Shown here: piece by piece, positions 1,209 to 40,507 of the stretch | Layout of the letters: every line of letters begins with the position of its first letter | How positions within the stretch are numbered: position 1 is the stretch's first letter | Made by a program: the position numbers and the translations under genes | The notes under the pieces: model-generated | Told to the model about the DNA's origin: nothing | Database searches by the model: none | The model's input: the letters and a program-made list of their open reading frames with translations, nothing else | Origin: Escherichia phage W143 | Strand: one strand, 5' to 3' | Length of the DNA: 64,000 nucleotides | Sequence record: MZ189262.1

Positions 1209-2409
1209 ATTTTGTAATAATGTCAAACTGTTCTTTAAAGCAGAAGCTTGAATCTTGATGCTGATACAGAAATTCATAAGCTTTTTCACGTTCACGGTCA
1301 TAAAGAGCTCGATCAGATGACAGTTCTTTAATACGTTCAAATGTTGATTCCATGTCATTTTCATCAAACCAAACGATACCGCTATCGTGTGAAATTAATG
1401 GAGTATTATCAACACGGAATTTTAAATTTTCGCCAGTAGATTTCCAAAATACTGGAATTGTTCCACATGCACCAAGCTCGAGATGAGTGTATTCTAAAGA
1501 ACGCTGTAGATATTTTTTGTCCAACTTACTCAGCTGATAACCAAATCCGGATTTACTCATGCGTTCAAGCATTTCGCTATTTACATAACGGTCGAGAATT
1601 TGCGTTGGCAAATTAGGAGCAATTTTAATTTGGTCTACTTGATGAAGACGATAATACTCATATGGAATTCCTTTTTCTTTAATAGGAATGAATGCTGGAG
1701 AACGTTCCAGACCTTCCATAATAGTACTTAGTCCTGCAGGTTTAAGATGTTTTTCGTGAAAATCAAACATCTGGTAAAAACCTTTCCATGTAGTCGTACG
1801 ACCAATCCAACGGTTGATATTCATGTTAATTTCAGAAACATCTTTCCAGTAGGTTGATCGAACCTTCGCAATATCCATAGGAGGCTGAAAGTTGTATACG
1901 GTCGGCGCTTCTTCAATATCATCAAACAAAGAAACAGTTTCCGGATACCATTCTTTCATTAAAACTTTATTAAAATCACCATTATCAGAATGGCTAAAAA
2001 TAACATCAGCTCGACGAACAGTTTCTTCTAATCCCAAATTTCGGCGTAAAGAAAGAGAAGAATGGTCATGCTGATAAACTACAACACGAACCGAAGGTTT
2101 AATGTTATCAATAATTTTTTTATAGTTATTAATGGTGTCTTCTTCTACTGAAGTAGCAGGAACTGAATTGATAATTAGAATATCACAATCATTTACCAGC
2201 TTAAGTGTTTTATCGTATTCTTTTGCCAATAAAACTGGAATTGAAAATGATTTATAATCATGCGCGCAATTACGAGTAAATGATTTATCTTTAGCATAAA
2301 CCAAAGTTACTTCATGACCATTTTTAATAAACCAATCACGTTGCTCAAGAGAAAATTTAGTTACACCGCAACCTTCAAGACCTCGAGCCATAAAAATACA
2401 TACTTTCAT
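1207..2409 (-). CDS. a-gt: DNA alpha-glucosyltransferase
   Basis: 400-aa ORF matching my recollection of T4 alpha-GT along its length; implies glucosylated hydroxymethylcytosine DNA. Confidence 0.88.
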   Translation of the reverse strand: MKVCIFMARGLEGCGVTKFSLEQRDWFIKNGHEVTLVYAKDKSFTRNCAHDYKSFSIPVLLAKEYDKTLKLVNDCDILIINSVPATSVEEDTINNYKKIIDNIKPSVRVVVYQHDHSSLSLRRNLGLEETVRRADVIFSHSDNGDFNKVLMKEWYPETVSLFDDIEEAPTVYNFQPPMDIAKVRSTYWKDVSEINMNINRWIGRTTTWKGFYQMFDFHEKHLKPAGLSTIMEGLERSPAFIPIKEKGIPYEYYRLHQVDQIKIAPNLPTQILDRYVNSEMLERMSKSGFGYQLSKLDKKYLQRSLEYTHLELGACGTIPVFWKSTGENLKFRVDNTPLISHDSGIVWFDENDMESTFERIKELSSDRALYDREREKAYEFLYQHQDSSFCFKEQFDIITK

Positions 2410-2460
2410 TTAATATCCTCATTGTTTTGGTTTATTTTACCAAAAATTTATAAAGCAATA

Positions 2461-2478
2461 TAGGAGCCTCGGCTCCTA
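2461..2478 (-). other. GC-rich hairpin (AGGAGC-CUCG-GCUCCU) in the a-gt upstream region
   Basis: Perfect inverted repeat taggagcc/ggctccta read from sequence. Confidence 0.35.
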
Positions 2479-2652
2479 TCCACATAATACACCATACAGA
2501 GGCTCATTAGAGCTTCTAAATTTTATGCGCTTATACGTTATAGTTCCTTCTGCTTTAGCTTTATCGTGAGCCTCTTTAAAGCGTCTCATCATTTCTACTT
2601 TAGAGGAACGAATTTTATTATAATCTATTTCAGAAGTCTGGGTGTTCATCTT

Positions 2653-2859
2653 TCACAGTTGCCACCATTTTTTGACTTGATAGGAATCAACCCACACTTT
2701 CATATTAGGGTCTGCTCTTACAATAGGAGGATTAACTTCTTTAATTGAACTATCATGGTATTCTTTTTCAGAAATTTTCACACAAAGATGGCCGTTCAAA
2801 GATTCAGTAAATCCTGCATTAATTTTAAGACGCTTGAATTTTACGTGTGTAAGCATCAA
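2653..2859 (-). CDS. Hypothetical protein (68 aa)
   Basis: ORF in same orientation as neighbours; overlaps the upstream ORF by 35 nt so the start is uncertain. Confidence 0.35.
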   Translation of the reverse strand: MMLTHVKFKRLKINAGFTESLNGHLCVKISEKEYHDSSIKEVNPPIVRADPNMKVWVDSYQVKKWWQL

Positions 2860-3142
2860 TCATATCCTCAATCTGTGATCTAGTAGTCTTCCAAAGAATA
2901 CTAATGAGTTCATCGTTATATGGCTGTTTTAGAATATCCCGACTTTTCTTGATAGCATATTCGTATTGAGCAAAATTATTGTTTTCAGCTGCAATTTGAG
3001 CGTGTTTATAAAGACGGTTCAGTTCGCGTTTATTTTTAGACAATAACTTATTTGCTTTTCTTTCTGCTTCAAGACGGTTCTTTTCTTCAATAGAAGAAAT
3101 AAGCTTTTCCACTTCATCATTAATTTCGGGTTTATCAGTCAT
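2825..3142 (-). CDS. Hypothetical charged helical protein (105 aa)
   Basis: ORF fills the gap between a-gt and 55; lysine/glutamate-rich. Confidence 0.5.
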   Translation of the reverse strand: MTDKPEINDEVEKLISSIEEKNRLEAERKANKLLSKNKRELNRLYKHAQIAAENNNFAQYEYAIKKSRDILKQPYNDELISILWKTTRSQIEDMIDAYTRKIQAS

Positions 3143-3143
3143 A

Positions 3144-3362
3144 TTATTTCTCTAATATAAAATAAAAATCATCATCTGTTAAATGATACCGATAGTTTAA
3201 TTCTACACCATTAGATTTAAAAGCGGTATCATACGGATTTTCTGGATCAATATCAATGTCAAGAGCTAAAACTTCCCTGAGATACATTTTAAGTAAATAG
3301 GGAATAGCTTCAACTTCAGGTATTTCTTCCAAGAATCCGGAGAGGTTAATCGTTAGCCTCAT
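3144..3362 (-). CDS. Hypothetical protein (72 aa)
   Basis: Tightly packed ORF directly downstream of gene 55. Confidence 0.45.
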
Positions 3363-29480: not shown

Positions 29481-29783
29481 TTATTTACCTTTAATTACTT
29501 TAGCTGCTTCGATAGCCGCTTGCTGAAGGTCATCCATAGACATACCGAATTTAGAAGCAAAGTTATCAATTTTCTTTTCGACAGCATTCAAAGGCTTGGC
29601 CTGTTTACCTTCATTAGCGCCAGGAAGAGCGAGAATACGTTCTTTGTCAATATAAAGGCTTACAAGTTTCTTACGGTCTTTATCGGACAAATCATGAAAT
29701 GAATGGGCCTTTTTATTTATAGCGGCTTCTAATTTACCTGCACTCACTCGCGCTTCAGTAATAAATTCTTGATATGTTTTCAT
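29481..29783 (-). CDS. ipII: Internal protein II
   Basis: 100 aa; capsid-targeting leader MKTYQEFITE|A; SD AAGGAA. Confidence 0.8.
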   Translation of the reverse strand: MKTYQEFITEARVSAGKLEAAINKKAHSFHDLSDKDRKKLVSLYIDKERILALPGANEGKQAKPLNAVEKKIDNFASKFGMSMDDLQQAAIEAAKVIKGK

Positions 29784-29820
29784 ATGTTTCCTTTAAATGT
29801 AAATAGTTTTATTCTTTAAG

Positions 29821-29895
29821 TTTGGGACAATTCGCACGCATGAATTGTCCGTTTCTATATTTATCTATTACCGGGTTCGAACTCGGCTTTATTAA
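29821..29895 (-). repeat. Intergenic repeat copy 2 with 9-bp hairpin GGACAATTC/GAATTGTCC
   Basis: Hairpin at 29824-29849; lies between the ipIII stop and ipII start. Confidence 0.55.
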
Positions 29896-30473
29896 GAATT
29901 ACCACGGGCTGCATTAGCAACGGCGTAAGCGTACTGAACATTAGCGTCTTTAAACGTACCTTTAGAGGTATCTAGTTCTGCCTTAAAGCCGCCTTTAGCC
30001 ATAACATCGGCAAATTCTTTACGGAAAGCCATTGCATCAAGACCTTTCCATGATGATTTGTGCTTAGCGAATTCAAGACCAGCGTAGTTGACAGCTTTAG
30101 CCAATTTATTATCAATGACCCATTTACCGGCTTTAGGCACAAACTTCGGGCCTTTTTGTTTAGAGAACAGTTTTAAATTCCAGCGACGAAGATCACTGTC
30201 GGCTTTAACAAAAGCTGCGTCTAAGTTACTAGCAACAACATCTTCAATATGAGCAAATTTAAGTCCGTCAACTTCAATATTTAAATCGGTACGCCAGCGA
30301 AGTCCTTCCCAAGCGAAAGCTTTAAAATCGGAAGCTTTTGTAGCTAAGTATCGTTCAATAGGGGCTGTTTTAGGGTCAAAGCCGTTTCCACCACGATAGT
30401 TCCACTCGTCCTTATTAATGCCTTTGGCCTTTACTACAGAAGCTTCAGCAATAAATTCTTGATACGTTTTCAT
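29892..30473 (-). CDS. ipIII: Internal protein III
   Basis: 193 aa; leader MKTYQEFIAE|A. Confidence 0.8.
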   Translation of the reverse strand: MKTYQEFIAEASVVKAKGINKDEWNYRGGNGFDPKTAPIERYLATKASDFKAFAWEGLRWRTDLNIEVDGLKFAHIEDVVASNLDAAFVKADSDLRRWNLKLFSKQKGPKFVPKAGKWVIDNKLAKAVNYAGLEFAKHKSSWKGLDAMAFRKEFADVMAKGGFKAELDTSKGTFKDANVQYAYAVANAARGNS

Positions 30474-30499
30474 TTTTGTTCCTATTGTTTTAATTCATG

Positions 30500-30814
30500 T
30501 TATTCTTTAGGGAAGTTTTTAGAGTATGCGTCATAAAGTTTATTACCGATGCGTCGGAAAACTCTAGCTGCAAAACGGTTTTCAGGGTTTTTAATCATGA
30601 TTTGCATCATGTAAGTTCCTGCATCCGAAAGAGCTTCTTCATAGTACCCATTAATTTCTTTAAGAGTCCTACGTTTACCACCAGGACCATCAACAGTAAT
30701 TTTCCATTTACCTGTAGAAGTGCGGCTCGGTGGCTCAACTTGTTCAATCCAAATATAACCACCTTCAACGCGTTGGTTGGCGGATTCTGCAATAAATTCT
30801 TTATACGTTTTCAT
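30500..30814 (-). CDS. Internal-protein-like capsid-targeted protein (104 aa)
   Basis: Leader MKTYKEFIAE|S; body not recognisable to me as IPI, IPII or IPIII. Confidence 0.65.
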   Translation of the reverse strand: MKTYKEFIAESANQRVEGGYIWIEQVEPPSRTSTGKWKITVDGPGGKRRTLKEINGYYEEALSDAGTYMMQIMIKNPENRFAARVFRRIGNKLYDAYSKNFPKE

Positions 30815-30844
30815 TTTTGTTTCCTTGTTTGTTTTGATAGAGTA

Positions 30845-30874
30845 ATTATACCATATTAATACTTAAGCGTAAAC
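30845..30874 (-). promoter_or_regulatory. Early promoter GTTTAC-N18-TATAAT upstream of the ip-like gene
   Basis: -35 at 30869-30874, -10 at 30845-30850. Confidence 0.55.
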
Positions 30875-30877
30875 CGT

Positions 30878-31138
30878 TTAAGCTTCACCGCCAGAAATAA
30901 TTCCGAAGTTGTTAAAATCGTATCCAATATCGTCAACATCTACTTTAGGACTTGCAGCAACATAAGCAATTTCACTACGTTTTGCATAGGTGTTGATTTC
31001 TTTACCATCACCACCTAAGAAAAAATACCCATTACGTTTTAATGAGCCAAAGTCTTCCGCATCACCAATGAAAGCTTTAACTTTAAATTTAGGACCTTTG
31101 GCATCTGCTTCAGCGATAAATTCTTGATACATTTTCAT
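30878..31138 (-). CDS. Internal-protein-like capsid-targeted protein (86 aa)
   Basis: Leader MKMYQEFIAE|A; divergent body. Confidence 0.65.
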   Translation of the reverse strand: MKMYQEFIAEADAKGPKFKVKAFIGDAEDFGSLKRNGYFFLGGDGKEINTYAKRSEIAYVAASPKVDVDDIGYDFNNFGIISGGEA

Positions 31139-31144
31139 TTTTCC

Positions 31145-31558
31145 TTAGTAAATTGATTTACCATAGTATTTGTACCAAGTAGGGCGTTGAGCAATTTTTT
31201 CATCTAAGCGAGCTTGACTTATCGCAATGGACGCTTCGGACGGGACATAATTATTACGAAATTCGACAGGGATGTCGGAAATATCCTGGACAGTCGTGTC
31301 CTTGATTTTGAAACCACGTTTCAAGCATTCAGCGATTAGCTCGATTTGACGTAAACGTAAAAATTCTAGTTTGTCGTAAAAGAATGTTACGTGACCTGTG
31401 CCTAAGATAAATGTTGGAGAGATTTTAAAATCCTTTACACGTTTACCGTTTTGAACATGTTTACGGACTGCACCAAATACGCGTGGTAATTCACGATACT
31501 CAGCCATAAGATGTTGGTCGGTCAGTTCAGAAACAAGTGTTAAATTGATACGAGTCAT
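31145..31558 (-). CDS. denV: Endonuclease V (pyrimidine-dimer DNA glycosylase)
   Basis: Track start is TTG 31570; ATG 31558 gives 137 aa starting [12 protein letters not shown], matching my recollection of T4 endonuclease V. Confidence 0.9.
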
Positions 31559-31585
31559 AATTTCCTCCAAGTAGTCGATGAATGT

Positions 31586-31615
31586 ATAGTATCAAAACCC
31601 TTGGAGGAAGTAAAC
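31586..31615 (-). promoter_or_regulatory. Early promoter GTTTAC-N18-TACTAT for denV
   Basis: -35 at 31610-31615, -10 at 31586-31591. Confidence 0.55.
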
Positions 31616-31617
31616 AA

Positions 31618-32420
<803 letters not shown>

Positions 32421-36462: not shown

Positions 36463-37128
36463 TTAAAATTTCATTTTTCGACCTTTAAACCATCCTTCTG
36501 GAATTGGGTCAGTTTTCTTAATACGTTTAGAAACTTTTTCATCTAATGAATGAATCCACATCATACCGAATTGGGAATTCTTTTCACCTTGTTGGTGTTT
36601 ATTTCTGGCGTGAGATTCTTTCATTTTATTAATAGTTTCAGGAGTATGATGCTTATTTAAAAATCTGCTATTATTTAAAAATTTTTCCCTGTATTCAGGA
36701 GTTGACCACAAGCGTTTAAATATATTTGAACCATGTTTACGATATTTTTCTTGAAGTAAAATATCATTTTTAAAACGTGACTTAAACGATTTAGCTCCTT
36801 TTAAACTAGCGTCTTTCTTCTGATTTAGCATCTCAGGAATATTTAAATGGTCCCATCCACCTTCACCGCCAAGTTTTAAATTATACACATCTGGTCTATT
36901 TAAAAACTCTTCTGTGACAATATTTTTCTCGGCTTCAAGCATAGATTCTTTATCATCAAAATACTCTAATATTTCTTTAGAGAAATTTTCTATACCATAC
37001 TTGTCTTGGGCTCTTTTTAATAATTTACCAGAACCCATATATCCATCATCTAAATTTTCGGTAGAATGAGCGCCTATGTAGATTTTATTATTAATTTTAT
37101 TTGTTATTTTATAAATGTAATGGAACAT
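36463..37128 (-). CDS. segB: GIY-YIG homing endonuclease SegB-like, embedded in the tRNA cluster
   Basis: 221 aa; motifs YIYKITN...KIYIGAHS, DDGYMGSG, GGEGG; lies between tRNA-Ile and tRNA-Arg. Confidence 0.8.
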   Translation of the reverse strand: MFHYIYKITNKINNKIYIGAHSTENLDDGYMGSGKLLKRAQDKYGIENFSKEILEYFDDKESMLEAEKNIVTEEFLNRPDVYNLKLGGEGGWDHLNIPEMLNQKKDASLKGAKSFKSRFKNDILLQEKYRKHGSNIFKRLWSTPEYREKFLNNSRFLNKHHTPETINKMKESHARNKHQQGEKNSQFGMMWIHSLDEKVSKRIKKTDPIPEGWFKGRKMKF

Positions 37129-37169: not shown

Positions 37170-37241
37170 TGGCCCTGGGTGGAATTGAACCACCATCTGG
37201 CGATTATGAGTCGCTTGCTTGAACCTTCCAGCTACAGGGCC
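37170..37241 (-). tRNA. tRNA-Ile (anticodon CAU, T4-type) or tRNA-Met
   Basis: Perfect acceptor stem GGCCCTG/CAGGGCC; anticodon loop CTCATAA; T-arm GGTGG-TTCAATT-CCACC. Confidence 0.75.
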
Positions 37242-37242
37242 T

Positions 37243-37318
37243 TGGTGCTGATTGACGGAATCGAACCGCCGACGTCCTCATTACAAGTGAGGTGCTCTAC
37301 CTACTGAGCTAAATCAGC
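37243..37318 (-). tRNA. tRNA-Thr (anticodon UGU)
   Basis: Anticodon loop CTTGTAA; CCA encoded. Confidence 0.8.
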
Positions 37319-37325
37319 GAAATTA

Positions 37326-37412
37326 CGGAGGCGATAGGATTTGAACCTATGAGTCGCCGGAGCGACTGCCGGTTTTCAAGACCGGTGCATTAAACCACTC
37401 TGCCACGCCTCC
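37326..37412 (-). tRNA. tRNA-Ser (anticodon UGA), long variable arm
   Basis: Anticodon loop CTTGAAA; 87 nt; 2-nt spacer to tRNA-Pro. Confidence 0.8.
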
Positions 37413-37414
37413 AG

Positions 37415-37488
37415 TCTCCGCGGCAGGATTTGAACCTGCGACATTCTGCTCCCAAAGCAGACGCTCTACCAAACTGAGCTACACGGAG
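37415..37488 (-). tRNA. tRNA-Pro (anticodon UGG)
   Basis: Anticodon loop TTTGGGA; T-arm GCAGG-TTCAAAT-CCTGC. Confidence 0.8.
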
Positions 37489-37498
37489 TAAATTAAAT

Positions 37499-37572
<74 letters not shown>

Positions 37573-37577
37573 AAATT

Positions 37578-37664
37578 TGGTGCGAGAAGTGGGACTCGAA
37601 CCCACAAGGAAATCATTCCGCAGCATTTTAAGTGCTGTGCCTTTACCAATTTGACCATTCTCGC
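37578..37664 (-). tRNA. tRNA-Leu (anticodon UAA), long variable arm
   Basis: Anticodon loop CTTAAAA; CCA encoded. Confidence 0.8.
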
Positions 37665-37665
37665 G

Positions 37666-37738
37666 CTGGGAATAAAGGACTCGAACCTTTGCATCTAGCA
37701 GTCAAAGTGCTATGCCTTACCAACTTGGCTAATTCCCA
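37666..37738 (-). tRNA. tRNA-Gln (anticodon UUG)
   Basis: Anticodon loop CTTTGAC; 1-nt spacer to tRNA-Leu. Confidence 0.8.
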
Positions 37739-37835
37739 ATTATTAACAAAGGCTCTCAAACAAGAACCCTTGATGATAGAGGGTATTAATCAGTGCGATA
37801 TGAGTTAATAATAACAAATAATTCTTAAAGCATAT

Positions 37836-38123
37836 TTACCATTTATGATGATACATATTTACGATGCATTCAAGACCCAAAGGATTCTTGAAAATATCAT
37901 ATTCAAGAGGACCTTTTTCTGTTTCAATAAAGAAATCAAAGTTAACTGTGTTAAATTTACGGTCTTCCTTCACTAATTTAACTTGAGAAGATGAACGGTC
38001 AATGTAAACCTTTTCAACTTCAAAACACGTTAAAATGCCATAATCATCAATCAAGGCTTTAGTTGCTTCTTGATCATATTTATATCCATTTTCAATGGAT
38101 GATACTTTAGCATAAAGAATCAT
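37836..38123 (-). CDS. Hypothetical protein (95 aa)
   Basis: ORF upstream of the tRNA cluster. Confidence 0.5.
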   Translation of the reverse strand: MILYAKVSSIENGYKYDQEATKALIDDYGILTCFEVEKVYIDRSSSQVKLVKEDRKFNTVNFDFFIETEKGPLEYDIFKNPLGLECIVNMYHHKW

Positions 38124-38125
38124 TA

Positions 38126-38308
38126 TTAACCTTTAGAAATTTTATCCATAACGATAGCAATTAAACCAATTAAAAATGCTACTACAAGTGAAAACACATT
38201 TTCTGCTGTAGTTAATAATCCGCATATAAATCCAACAAACATTGAAAAACTAAAAGCGGAAGCAGAAATTGCAATAGCAACATTTCGAATTAATTCACAA
38301 CGTTTCAT
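38126..38308 (-). CDS. Small membrane protein (60 aa)
   Basis: Two hydrophobic segments; ATG with SD GAGGAG. Confidence 0.45.
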   Translation of the reverse strand: MKRCELIRNVAIAISASAFSFSMFVGFICGLLTTAENVFSLVVAFLIGLIAIVMDKISKG

Positions 38309-38336
38309 TTTATTCTCCTCAGTAGTTGATAGGGTA

Positions 38337-38366
38337 ATAATATCACTACCCCATCTAAAAGTAAAC
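38337..38366 (-). promoter_or_regulatory. Early promoter GTTTAC-N18-TATTAT
   Basis: -35 at 38361-38366, -10 at 38337-38342. Confidence 0.5.
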
Positions 38367-38376
38367 GGTTTATAAA

Positions 38377-38685
38377 CTATTTTATTCCGCGTGATGCAAT
38401 TGTATTCTGTCGTTTAGCACCAGTTTGTTTAAAGTCATGATTGTCGATTTGATCGGTACGAGCAACTCCGAATGATGATTTAATCTTAGCTTTAGATCCT
38501 TTAGTTATAGAAATAAACATCTCGGAAGCCCCTTTCTTAAAGTCCAAAGCAATTACTTCAACACCGTTCTTAGCAAGTGACTTCAGAATTGCCTCCGCGT
38601 ATTCATCATCAAGACTCGCCTGAGTATTAATAACGAATGTCTTTGGTGCAGCCGCTTCATTGATAAATTCTTTAAATGTTTTCAT
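38377..38685 (-). CDS. Internal-protein-like capsid-targeted protein (102 aa)
   Basis: Leader MKTFKEFINE|A; SD AGGA. Confidence 0.65.
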   Translation of the reverse strand: MKTFKEFINEAAAPKTFVINTQASLDDEYAEAILKSLAKNGVEVIALDFKKGASEMFISITKGSKAKIKSSFGVARTDQIDNHDFKQTGAKRQNTIASRGIK

Positions 38686-38745
38686 TTTATTTTCCTAATT
38701 AATTTTGATGAGATAATAGTACCACAACCCTATTTAAAAGTAAAC

Positions 38746-39018
38746 TCATTTTAAATAAATTGCATATTTTTTATAACCCGCTGACTCATGACGAAGACCC
38801 TTATCATTAGCAAAACGCTCAATGTTGTTAATTTGATTCTGGTCAAGTTCAGAGATGTCAAACACGAAAAAGTTACGTTTGTTACCAACTGTTACATAGT
38901 CAGTTAAATCAATATCATATAGGTAATTGATGTCAGCAATCAAAGTCTTGACAGCTTTGCTAATTTTTACTTTTTCGTTAAAAGCAGCTTCATTGATAAA
39001 TTCTTTAAATGTTTTCAT
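38746..39018 (-). CDS. Internal-protein-like capsid-targeted protein (90 aa) at the ipI locus
   Basis: Track start is TTG 39030; ATG 39018 follows GGAGAATAAA; leader MKTFKEFINE|A. Confidence 0.65.
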   Translation of the reverse strand: MKTFKEFINEAAFNEKVKISKAVKTLIADINYLYDIDLTDYVTVGNKRNFFVFDISELDQNQINNIERFANDKGLRHESAGYKKYAIYLK

Positions 39019-39054
39019 TTTATTCTCCAATCACTCATTTGTTTTGATAGGGTA

Positions 39055-39083
39055 ATAGTATCACAACTAAAACCCCGTGTAAA
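39055..39083 (-). promoter_or_regulatory. Early promoter TTTACA-N17-TACTAT
   Basis: -35 at 39078-39083, -10 at 39055-39060. Confidence 0.5.
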
Positions 39084-39096
39084 TAACTTTGTGAAA

Positions 39097-39793
<697 letters not shown>

Positions 39794-39794
<1 letters not shown>

Positions 39795-40507
39795 TATAGT
39801 ACCTTTAGTGTATTTTTAATTTTAGAAAAAAGTTCTTCAAGAGAACCATCGTTTGTAATTACTAAATCGCCATCACGAATTGGCAATCCAGCTTCTGTAA
39901 TATGAGTATCATTGGATTTTTGACCAGGACGAACTACATGAATTACTGTAGCACCCATCGCCCTAGCCGCATCCATTTCATGATCTTGACGAGTATCAGG
40001 AACGATATAATAATCATAACCTGAGTTAAATTTATCAAGATAATCTAAAGCAAATAATTTTACCCAATACATGCGGTCGAAGTTATTAACAATCAAATCC
40101 GTACCTAGGGCTTGCATCAGACGACGGACTGACCATTGATCTTCAATATTATTTATAACGTCAGCAATCTTGTTAAATGCTACGAAATTAACTGCGTCAT
40201 CAAAAACAAACACGCCTTTAATTGGGCTTTTACTATTAAGATAGCAAAATGCTTGTTCCATAATCGTAATTACTTCTAATTTAGTCAGATTTAAATTAGT
40301 CTCGCGATCATAGTCAATTCCTTCAAACTCTTTACGAGTTAAACAAGGATAGTCAGTGTTTGCTGCAAATACGCCCCATGCATAAGCCAATGCATCTTTA
40401 ATAGGACCAGCAAGTTGATATTTAACTGCAGAATAATTATTCATAATAAAATCTGCAGTAGTATCTTTTCCACTACGCTTTACACCACTTAAAAAGATTA
40501 GTTTCAT
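39794..40507 (-). CDS. 1: Deoxynucleoside monophosphate kinase gp1
   Basis: 237 aa; P-loop LSGVKRSGKDT. Confidence 0.9.

Follow-up and report, generated by a model that had tools for sequence, protein, structure and literature searches.

Two adjacent genes in the ipI slot of a T4-like phage were identified, with near certainty from sequence comparison, as those of the internal head proteins Ip9 and Ip7. Together they are probably a pair of T-even internal-protein cassettes, the products of which would be targeted to the capsid, processed, co-injected with the DNA, and directed as inhibitors against host defenses, and which would be swapped by homologous exchange. The finding itself, Ip9 and Ip7 as a pair of cassettes in the ipI slot, is already known: the proteins bear these names in the RB15, K3, RB32, and T2 records and fall into PHROG families. 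According to two papers that cite their work (PMC12373910, PMC3012670), Repoila et al. described the ip genes, the leader, the locus, and its polymorphism for T-even phages in 1994, and many genomes carry annotations of these genes. What remains of interest is what Ip7 and Ip9 target, along with the homologues of Ip9 that lack the leader.

Identification of ip9 and ip7 and their neighborhood

The window (the whole stretch of 64,000 nucleotides analyzed here) was a genome segment of a Tequatrovirus (T4-like phage), and all genes of the ip stretch lay on the minus strand (Table 1). The strand of the two ORFs had not been given in the preliminary description. The 1.8 kb around the ip pair showed 98.4% identity with Shigella phage SF2-1 and the coliphages IME340 and LYE-01. 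The T4 gene order 57B-ipI-trna.4-trna.3-trna.2-tRNAs was kept, except that two genes replaced ipI and trna.3 was absent. The pair was located between 57B and the tRNA cluster in the position of T4 ipI, as the preliminary description had stated. The neighboring 57B encodes the anti-CBASS nuclease Acb1. In an Rfam scan only tRNAs were detected, and no RNA element was found in the ip pair.

The start of ip9 had been placed at a TTG at 39030 in the ORF listing, which was an over-extension. GGAGAATAAAATG puts a ribosome-binding site (RBS) ahead of the ATG at 39018, and because GGAGAATAAA precedes this ATG, as it does in both remaining copies of the upstream module described below, the ATG and not the TTG was taken as the start codon.

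The 102-aa protein matched the 'internal head protein' family phrog_2667 over residues 1–102 with an E-value of 2.2e-41, and it showed 99, 98, and 92% identity with Ip7 of RB32, 'internal head protein 7' of T2, and Ip7 of Karamvirus CC31, respectively. The 90-aa protein matched phrog_7673, also an 'internal head protein' family, over residues 1–90 with an E-value of 1e-54, and its identity was 95.6% with RB32 Ip9, 93% with RB15 Ip9 (UniProt Q38376), and 100% with the protein of phage vB_Eco_F25. Comparison with the ip-locus genes of other T4-like phages, which the preliminary description had proposed as a check, thus assigned the pair to Ip9 and Ip7, at 93–100% identity to named proteins or to vB_Eco_F25. 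In the RB32 record, Ip9 and Ip7 are annotated as 'similar to RB15 and K3' and 'flanked by 43 bp direct repeat', and Ip5 is annotated with 'replaces ipI'.

The Ip7 proteins of RB32, T2, RB15, K3, and CC31 have the same length and leader type as the 102-aa protein and the same place directly upstream of trna.4, from which the protein of the window differs by a few substitutions. What differs is the upstream partner of Ip7, which is Ip9 alone in the window, Ip5 and Ip9 in RB32, and Ip5 in T2. The Ip9 proteins of RB15, K3, RB32, and RB33 (phrog_7673) share the cargo domain of the Ip9 of the window.

Scans of Ip7 and Ip9 against Pfam and NCBIfam gave nothing above noise. An exhaustive HMMER search of 1.84 billion representatives with the Ip7 profile found only three genuine clusters at the 50% identity level, all from T4-like phages; a fourth match, a 664-aa tandem-repeat protein, was rejected as spurious, the score being an artifact of summed repeats. 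An 86-aa ORF at 30878-31138 was tried as an Ip7 paralogue on account of its match to phrog_2667 (E-value, 1e-19), and it was rejected after direct BLASTP gave no convincing similarity.

Table 1. Features of the ip region and related genes in the window
Feature	Position	Strand	Remarks
Gene 1	39794-40507	-	dNMP kinase
57A	39552-39794	-	
57B	39097-39552	-	Pfam Acb1, E-value 2.6e-60
Promoter ahead of Ip9	39055-39083	-	T4-early/sigma-70-like; TTTACA, 17 nt, TACTAT, TG extension
46-nt direct repeat, copy 1	38983-39028		RBS and leader codons of Ip9; 96% identical to copy 2
ip9	38746-39018	-	Ip9 precursor, 90 aa; stop codon included; phrog_7673 match
Ip9 capsid-targeting sequence	38989-39018	-	Codons 1-10, MKTFKEFINE, then Ala; I-x-E motif of the kind the prohead protease would cut
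Promoter-like site ahead of Ip7	38716-38744	-	Early type; TTTACT (38744-38739), 17 nt, TACTAT (38721-38716)
46-nt direct repeat, copy 2	38650-38695		RBS and leader codons of Ip7
ip7	38377-38685	-	Ip7 precursor, 102 aa; stop codon included; phrog_2667 match
Ip7 capsid-targeting sequence	38656-38685	-	Codons 1-10, MKTFKEFINE, then Ala
Promoter-like site downstream of Ip7	38337-38365	-	Early type; serves the trna.4-like gene; right-hand boundary of swapped segment
trna.4-like membrane ORF	38126-38308	-	60 aa; matches T4 trna.4
95-aa ORF	37836-38123	-	Matches trna.2
tRNA cluster	37170-37738		Seven tRNA genes; then segB-like GIY-YIG gene and tRNA-Arg
IPIII	29892-30473	-	Bears a capsid-targeting sequence
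IPII	29481-29783	-	Bears a capsid-targeting sequence

Capsid-targeting leader of Ip9 and Ip7

The translations of both ORFs began with MKTFKEFINEAA, and residues 1–12 were identical between Ip9 and Ip7, which bore out the earlier claim that both carry the leader MKTFKEFINE followed by Ala. The leader form MKT(Y/F)xEF(I/L)xE was present in both ORFs, and the cleavage context of (L/I)-x-E plus a small residue was represented in the sequences of Ip7 and Ip9 by I8-N9-E10 followed by A11. This I-x-E/A context (the slash marks the cleavage site) was kept in every aligned T4-like homologue of Ip7 and Ip9. Leader residues 1–7, MKTFKEF, were identical to those of T4 IPI, and the EFI.E/A end matched that of the IPII and IPIII encoded in the window itself. 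A six-frame scan of the window for the leader motif found seven ORFs, all on the minus strand and always with the motif at the N-terminus, so the leader is genuine and no coincidence. The five other ORFs were located at 29481-31899 and included clear IPII and IPIII genes together with those of three further proteins with a capsid-targeting sequence (CTS).

A CTS of approximately 10 aa suffices for encapsidation, including that of foreign proteins, and the maturation protease then cuts the CTS off (PMC7697877, PMC3012670). After removal of the CTS, T4 internal proteins stay with the DNA (PMC7697877, PMC3012670). From the leader we infer that Ip7 and Ip9 would be packaged and cleaved in the same manner; a literature search found no direct evidence for the packaging, cleavage, or injection of either protein.

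Promoter modules, direct repeats, and expression

Alignment of the upstream regions revealed a module of approximately 90 nt that occurs three times, preceding Ip9, Ip7, and the trna.4-like gene. It consisted of (G)TTTAC(A/T) and TA(C/T)TAT, separated by 17 nt that include a TG extension, and followed by GGAGAATAAAATGAAA, a composition that presumably fits T4 early promoters. A generic promoter scan was not enriched over shuffled sequences (9 sites found, 8.5 expected), and the case for the promoter sites therefore rests on the three-fold repetition of the conserved module and on its presumed fit to T4 early promoters. The threshold of that scan was 9 of 12 consensus matches; the sites at 39083-39055 and 38365-38337 were called, and the site of Ip7, with 8/12, was not. 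Both promoter sites named in the preliminary description were found to exist, and that at 39083-39055 serves Ip9. The statement that the pair is flanked by its own promoters had to be corrected, because the site at 38337-38366 is situated past the end of Ip7, where it serves the trna.4-like gene that follows, and the site that precedes Ip7, at 38744-38716, had been missed. The two copies of the 46-nt direct repeat, which covers the RBS and the leader codons of the two genes, provide homology at which exchange can occur.

An exact T4 late-promoter box was not found directly upstream of the ip pair. The nearest exact late box on the coding strand, TATAAATA, was located at 40150-40157, about 1.1 kb upstream, and no terminator-like hairpin was found within 37700-39700 or between this late box and the ip genes. 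Since only early-type sites stand directly upstream and the late box is at such a distance, expression of the pair at the time of prohead assembly is something that we infer.

The early type of all the directly upstream sites would suit an alternative explanation, namely that the leader is a mere recombination scar and that the proteins are ordinary cytoplasmic early proteins that do not enter the head; in other phages the Ip9 cargo does serve as an early gene with no leader, as described below. We regard this explanation as very improbable, because the leader is intact and near-consensus with its cleavage context kept throughout the aligned T4-like homologues, and because a CTS by itself packages foreign proteins (PMC7697877). 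Packaging of Ip9 and Ip7 by way of their leaders is the reading that we follow.

Exchange of cassettes at the ipI locus

In our model, each of the two genes would be a cassette with an early-type promoter and a strong RBS, followed by a CTS of 10 codons and by an unrelated cargo domain of small size. The breakpoints of the cassettes were mapped by BLASTN against T4, T2, and RB32. In the comparison with T4, homology (96%) extended from 57A through the promoter and RBS of Ip9, ended at 38997 after leader codon 7, and resumed at 38346 (98%) inside the trna.4 promoter module. This gap in the homology means that the sequence at 38996-38347, which comprises the Ip9 cargo and the whole Ip7 cassette, replaces the ipI cargo. 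In the comparison with T2, the difference was limited to the Ip9 cargo (38997-38729), which stands in place of the Ip5 cargo, and relative to RB32 the Ip5 cassette was simply absent from the window. Against the three phages, the breakpoints lay within the leader at 38997/38998 and within the promoter modules at 38346 and 38728; leader homology to T4 ipI and to Ip5 of RB32 and T2 stopped at 38997/38998, after codon 7.

The first cassette after 57B always began with MKTFKEF, whatever its cargo, be it ipI in T4, Ip5 in RB32 and T2, or Ip9 in the window. Whereas Ip9 is the first cassette in the window and has the leader MKTFKEFINE, it is the second cassette in RB32 and has the leader MKTYQEFISE there. 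The leader thus follows the position and not the cargo, which argues for exchange inside the leader and promoter repeats.

The content of the slot was ipI in T4, Ip5-Ip7 in T2, Ip5-Ip9-Ip7 in RB32, ip7 in CC31, and Ip9-Ip7 in the window. In the phage database, 57B occurred in 1470 records, with an identity of at least 99% in 498 of these. IPI occurred in 291 records, Ip7 in 283, and Ip9 in 192; the records that reached 80% identity numbered 120 for Ip7 and 93 for Ip9. Only 45 records had the arrangement of the window across 80% or more of the 1.8-kb query. Pairwise dN/dS values were 0.02–0.09 for Ip7 and 0.12–0.29 for Ip9, the latter resting on few substitutions, and indicate purifying selection on both genes. 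The locus therefore varies by the presence or absence of genes and not by fast sequence change. Between the window and Karamvirus CC31, the identity was 92% for Ip7, 80% for the flanking 57B, and 37% for trna.4; this higher conservation of Ip7 than of its neighbors points to either strong constraint or a recent transfer of the cassette between genera.

We propose that the locus evolves through homologous exchange, for which the repeated promoter/RBS/leader modules would be the sites. By such exchange, whole cargo genes would be swapped, added, or lost while each cargo is conserved. The preliminary description had called the ipI locus hypervariable and consistent with arms-race turnover. The slot was indeed polymorphic among T-even phages, but there was no rapid sequence divergence (dN/dS 0.02–0.29); likewise, turnover holds in the sense of gain, loss, and swapping of cassettes, and does not extend to the individual proteins, which were strongly conserved.

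Cargo domains and their relation to IPI

The precursor of T4 IPI has the sequence MKTFKEFTSTTTPVSTITE/ATLT..., and when it was compared by BLASTP with Ip7 and with Ip9, the leader alone aligned. Searches of the PDB by phmmer and with profiles of Ip7 and Ip9 yielded no relatives and did not reach 2JUB, which T4 IPI, used as a positive control, found with an E-value of 1.1e-44. This upheld the earlier observation that the mature sequences bear no resemblance to T4 IPI; in the alignment to IPI* the two proteins did not behave as ordinary IPI variants, their mature domains being without homology to IPI*. The possibility that the Ip9 and Ip7 cargos are diverged paralogues of each other was also considered, and it was rejected because hhalign of the two families aligned only the leader.

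The AF2 model of Ip9 (pLDDT 89.6) predicted an alpha-beta-beta-alpha-beta-beta domain after the leader helix. The model of Ip7 was of low confidence overall (pLDDT 63.5), with a beta-alpha-beta-beta core at residues 14–76 (pLDDT approximately 80) that would have an RRM/ACT-like topology. The tail of Ip7 at residues 78–102 was predicted to be disordered, yet it is nearly invariant among the homologues and basic; the conserved tail sequence is HDFKQTG-KRQNTIASRGIK. The predicted mature proteins Ip9* (80 aa, 9.3 kDa, pI 8.2) and Ip7* (92 aa, 9.9 kDa, pI 9.65) are small and basic, as is IPI* (76 aa, pI 9.0). T4 IPI/IPI* (PDB 2JUB), an injected inhibitor of GmrS/GmrD, shares with them the slot, the MKTFKEF start, and a similar mature size and basic charge; its fold consists of two beta sheets between N- and C-terminal helices.

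Basic mature proteins could have a mainly structural function, in which they neutralize and organize the packaged DNA without a specific host target. Lysines of the internal proteins of T4 make contact with phosphates of the DNA inside the head (PMC3012670), and the RRM/ACT-like topology of the Ip7 core and the basic tail would agree with such a function. A generic counter-ion role, however, leaves unexplained why the cargo domains are specific, folded, and strongly conserved, and why they are present or absent among otherwise near-identical phages; moreover, genes for IPII, IPIII, and another three CTS proteins already occur in the window. We therefore consider a mainly structural role unlikely.

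Proposed mechanism and role in anti-defense

We propose a route for Ip9 and Ip7 that is the one presumed for T4 IPI, through the prohead core, the protease, and ejection. The CTS would first bring each precursor into the scaffolding core while the prohead is being assembled, as the near-consensus leader suggests. The prohead protease would then cut after I-N-E and leave basic Ip9* and Ip7* of approximately 9–10 kDa in the DNA-filled head. Finally, the proteins would be ejected with the DNA and could act before any phage gene is expressed, and each Ip, by analogy with T4 Ip1–Ip3, would bind and disable one specific first-line defense protein of the host.

The type IV restriction enzymes of the GmrSD type form a highly diverse family, and Ip1, Ip2, and Ip3 each inhibit a single variant with strict specificity (PMC12373910). 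IPIII made in the host still works without its CTS (PMC9391042). T4 IPII and IPIII (Ip2 and Ip3) belong to the same CTS class, with the I-x-E/A context, and are also encoded in the window. They differ from Ip7 and Ip9 in their locus, their unrelated cargo domains, and their established targets, GmrSD-ECOR21 and GmrSD-ECOR17, and they share with the role proposed here the concept of one injected inhibitor per defense variant. On this analogy we consider Ip7 and Ip9 to be candidate co-injected inhibitors of specific host defenses. Because each of Ip1–Ip3 disables one GmrSD variant, every orphan Ip probably points to a new host defense or defense subtype. For the design of phage therapy, the content of Ip cassettes is a likely determinant of host range.

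The protection assay against GmrSD-like systems that had been suggested in the preliminary description has largely been run already in a published screen. In 2025, ten ip genes, including ip4-10, were assayed against the active members of a panel of 15 common enterobacterial GmrSD groups (PMC12373910). For ip4-10 there were 'no new inhibitory interactions' and no reproducible inhibition of the active groups (PMC12373910), an apparent signal of ip7 with CLS_011 having failed on repeat (PMC12373910). Our literature search for a function of Ip7 or Ip9 found nothing other than this negative screen. A narrower version of our preferred explanation is that Ip7, Ip9, or both inhibit a GmrSD-family type IV enzyme of a subtype outside any panel. 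The fact that all three T4 Ips with established targets hit GmrSD, each one variant, speaks for this version, as do the diversity of the family and the confinement of Ip7 to T4-like phages, with only three clusters. In view of the negative panel result, the lack of resemblance to IPI* in sequence and in profile, and the occurrence of the Ip9 cargo in phages of other groups (see below), we hold it to be possible but somewhat doubtful.

It is also conceivable that, as effectors, the injected proteins affect host physiology or competing phages instead of a defense nuclease, for instance through changes to transcription or translation or through superinfection exclusion. Other packaged T4 proteins, such as Alt, do modify the host machinery. 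The product gpalt is among the listed contents of the head (PMC7697877), and no defense target of Ip7 or Ip9 has been found so far (PMC12373910). At their small size, however, neither protein is likely to be an enzyme, and neither a catalytic motif nor a Pfam or NCBIfam family was found in them. Every Ip of established role, moreover, inhibits a defense nuclease, and effectors of this kind seem to us quite unlikely. Inhibition of specific host defenses by co-injected Ip9 and Ip7 is thus the role that we prefer.

Leaderless homologues of Ip9 outside T4-like phages

Searches by tblastn and with profiles detected the Ip9 cargo (residues approximately 17–90) outside T4-like phages. In Bas70 and many contigs of approximately 42–45 kb, the Ip9 domain is a stand-alone protein of 72 aa, named Bas70_0057 in Bas70, and in Seuratvirus KS_S4 it is the 74-aa product of CDS0075. 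In the Agtrevirus SKML-39, the last 75 or so residues of gp077, a 660-aa protein with no assigned function, constitute the Ip9 domain. The identities of these homologues with Ip9 were 33–51%, and the domains of Bas70, KS_S4, and SKML-39 matched phrog_7673 with E-values of 5.8e-27, 6.3e-21, and 1.7e-8, respectively. Bas70 is called Kagunavirus-like here because the tblastn matches included two Kagunavirus records; the Bas70 record itself has no genus.

Because in-frame stop codons are located just upstream of the Ip9-domain genes of the siphophages, these genes have no CTS leader. The cargo of approximately 72 aa in Bas70, KS_S4, and SKML-39 is homologous to that of Ip9 (44–51% identity) but has no CTS; in the siphophages it stands alone among small genes, and in SKML-39 it is fused at the C-terminus. 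In Bas70, the gene is the first after a sigma-70-like promoter and heads a run of small genes. Such a stand-alone domain in siphophages without a CTS would be left unexplained by a mainly structural role in the head. The comparison suggests that a mobile small protein existed beforehand and probably acquired its CTS in the T4-like lineage.

The Kagunavirus-like siphophages and the Seuratvirus are, to our knowledge, not thought to carry glucosyl-hmC DNA, and the presence of the Ip9 cargo in Bas70 and in a Seuratvirus argues against a GmrSD subtype as the target of Ip9. The target of Ip9 may be something that phages of other DNA chemistries also meet. We put forward only tentatively the further proposal that Ip9 is a widespread, free-standing small phage protein, captured by T4-like phages by means of the CTS, and that its target is a general first-line defense instead of a GmrSD enzyme specific to glucosyl-hmC. 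The leaderless Ip9 of the siphophages and the Agtrevirus suggests that such a target would be a general defense not tied to hmC DNA. If this were true, it would fit the negative result of Ip9 in the GmrSD panel, and Ip9 would be the first internal protein to act on something other than type IV restriction. The leaderless homologues are a new, modest lead and offer a practical handle that is testable by simple expression. The label 'internal head protein' on the siphophage genes was probably carried over from the T4-like members of the family.

Conservation of Ip7 and its C-terminal tail

When the Ip7 gene of Karamvirus CC31 was compared with the corresponding region of the window (38283-38687), the identities were 92% for the protein and 87% for the DNA. 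The flanking genes were less similar: 57B reached 80% at the protein level and 73% at the DNA level, and trna.4 reached 37% at the protein level. The higher cross-genus conservation of Ip7 than of its flanks suggested either a recent transfer of the cassette or an unusually strong constraint. The C-terminal tail of Ip7, residues 78-102 (DQIDNHDFKQTGAKRQNTIASRGIK), was predicted to be disordered (pLDDT < 50) and was nearly unchanged among homologues; its RQNTI core was retained even in the clade with 50% identity (represented by the homologous protein P0059). The tail may be a short linear binding motif.

Ip9 motif and cargo domain

A second I-x-E motif, I-S-E, was present at residues 55-57 of Ip9, within the folded domain, in the loop joining the strand of residues 50-54 to the helix of residues 60-73. 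Since the residues at this position were T-S-E in the other T4-like Ip9s and T-D-G in the siphophage homologues, the motif was not conserved, and it is therefore probably not a processing site.

Outside the T4-like phages, the Ip9 cargo domain occurred without a leader as a gene of 72-74 aa in Bas70 (Kagunavirus-like) and Seuratvirus KS_S4, and as the C-terminal domain of the 660-aa protein gp077 of Agtrevirus SKML-39. The siphophage genes of Bas70 and KS_S4 bear the annotation "internal head protein", probably a mislabel that has been propagated. The "ip7 protein" of Escherichia phage OLB35 (P0017 in our comparison set, 77 aa) was a chimera without the leader, consisting of Ip7 residues 29-72 followed by about 32 residues from the C-terminal end of Ip9. 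It appears to have arisen by a deletion or recombination event that joined neighboring cassettes, and may be a pseudogene.

Features of the window and comparison loci (L numbers denote comparison loci)
Feature	Sequence	Position	Strand	Remarks
IPII	window	29481-29783	minus	100 aa, leader
IPIII	window	29892-30473	minus	193 aa, leader
104-aa protein	window	30500-30814	minus	phrog_3966, leader
86-aa protein	window	30878-31138	minus	leader
93-aa protein	window	31618-31899	minus	leader; 48% identity to Ip5 of T4-like phage RB32
segB-like gene	window	36463-37128	minus	221 aa, GIY-YIG
trna.4-like/trna.2-like junction	window	38123-38126
Ip7 tail	window	38377-38451
Ip9 I-S-E	window	38848-38856
57B	window	39097-39552	minus	Pfam PF23474, E 2.6e-60
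trna.3	T4 (L003)	2919-3329		16-kDa ORF3
Ip9-domain gene	Bas70 (L005)	3007-3225		leaderless
gp077	SKML-39 (L006)	1252-3234		660 aa, phrog_3867
Ip9-domain gene	KS_S4 (L007)	2992-3216		leaderless
Ip7	CC31 (L009)	1501-1809

Second ip locus and neighboring genes

A second ip locus was located on the minus strand at 29481-31899. Its five ORFs likewise carry capsid-targeting leaders; together with Ip9 and Ip7, the phage therefore has seven candidate packaged proteins.

The 57B gene adjoining the ip cassettes encodes the anti-CBASS nuclease Acb1. The 57B proteins of T4 and the window were 100% identical, yet the ip cargo alongside differed. On comparison with T4, trna.3 was missing from the window, where the trna.4-like and trna.2-like genes were directly adjacent; certain close relatives, Salmonella phage Lv5cm among them, have kept trna.3. 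As in T4, a gene for a segB-like homing endonuclease separated tRNA-Arg from the main tRNA cluster.
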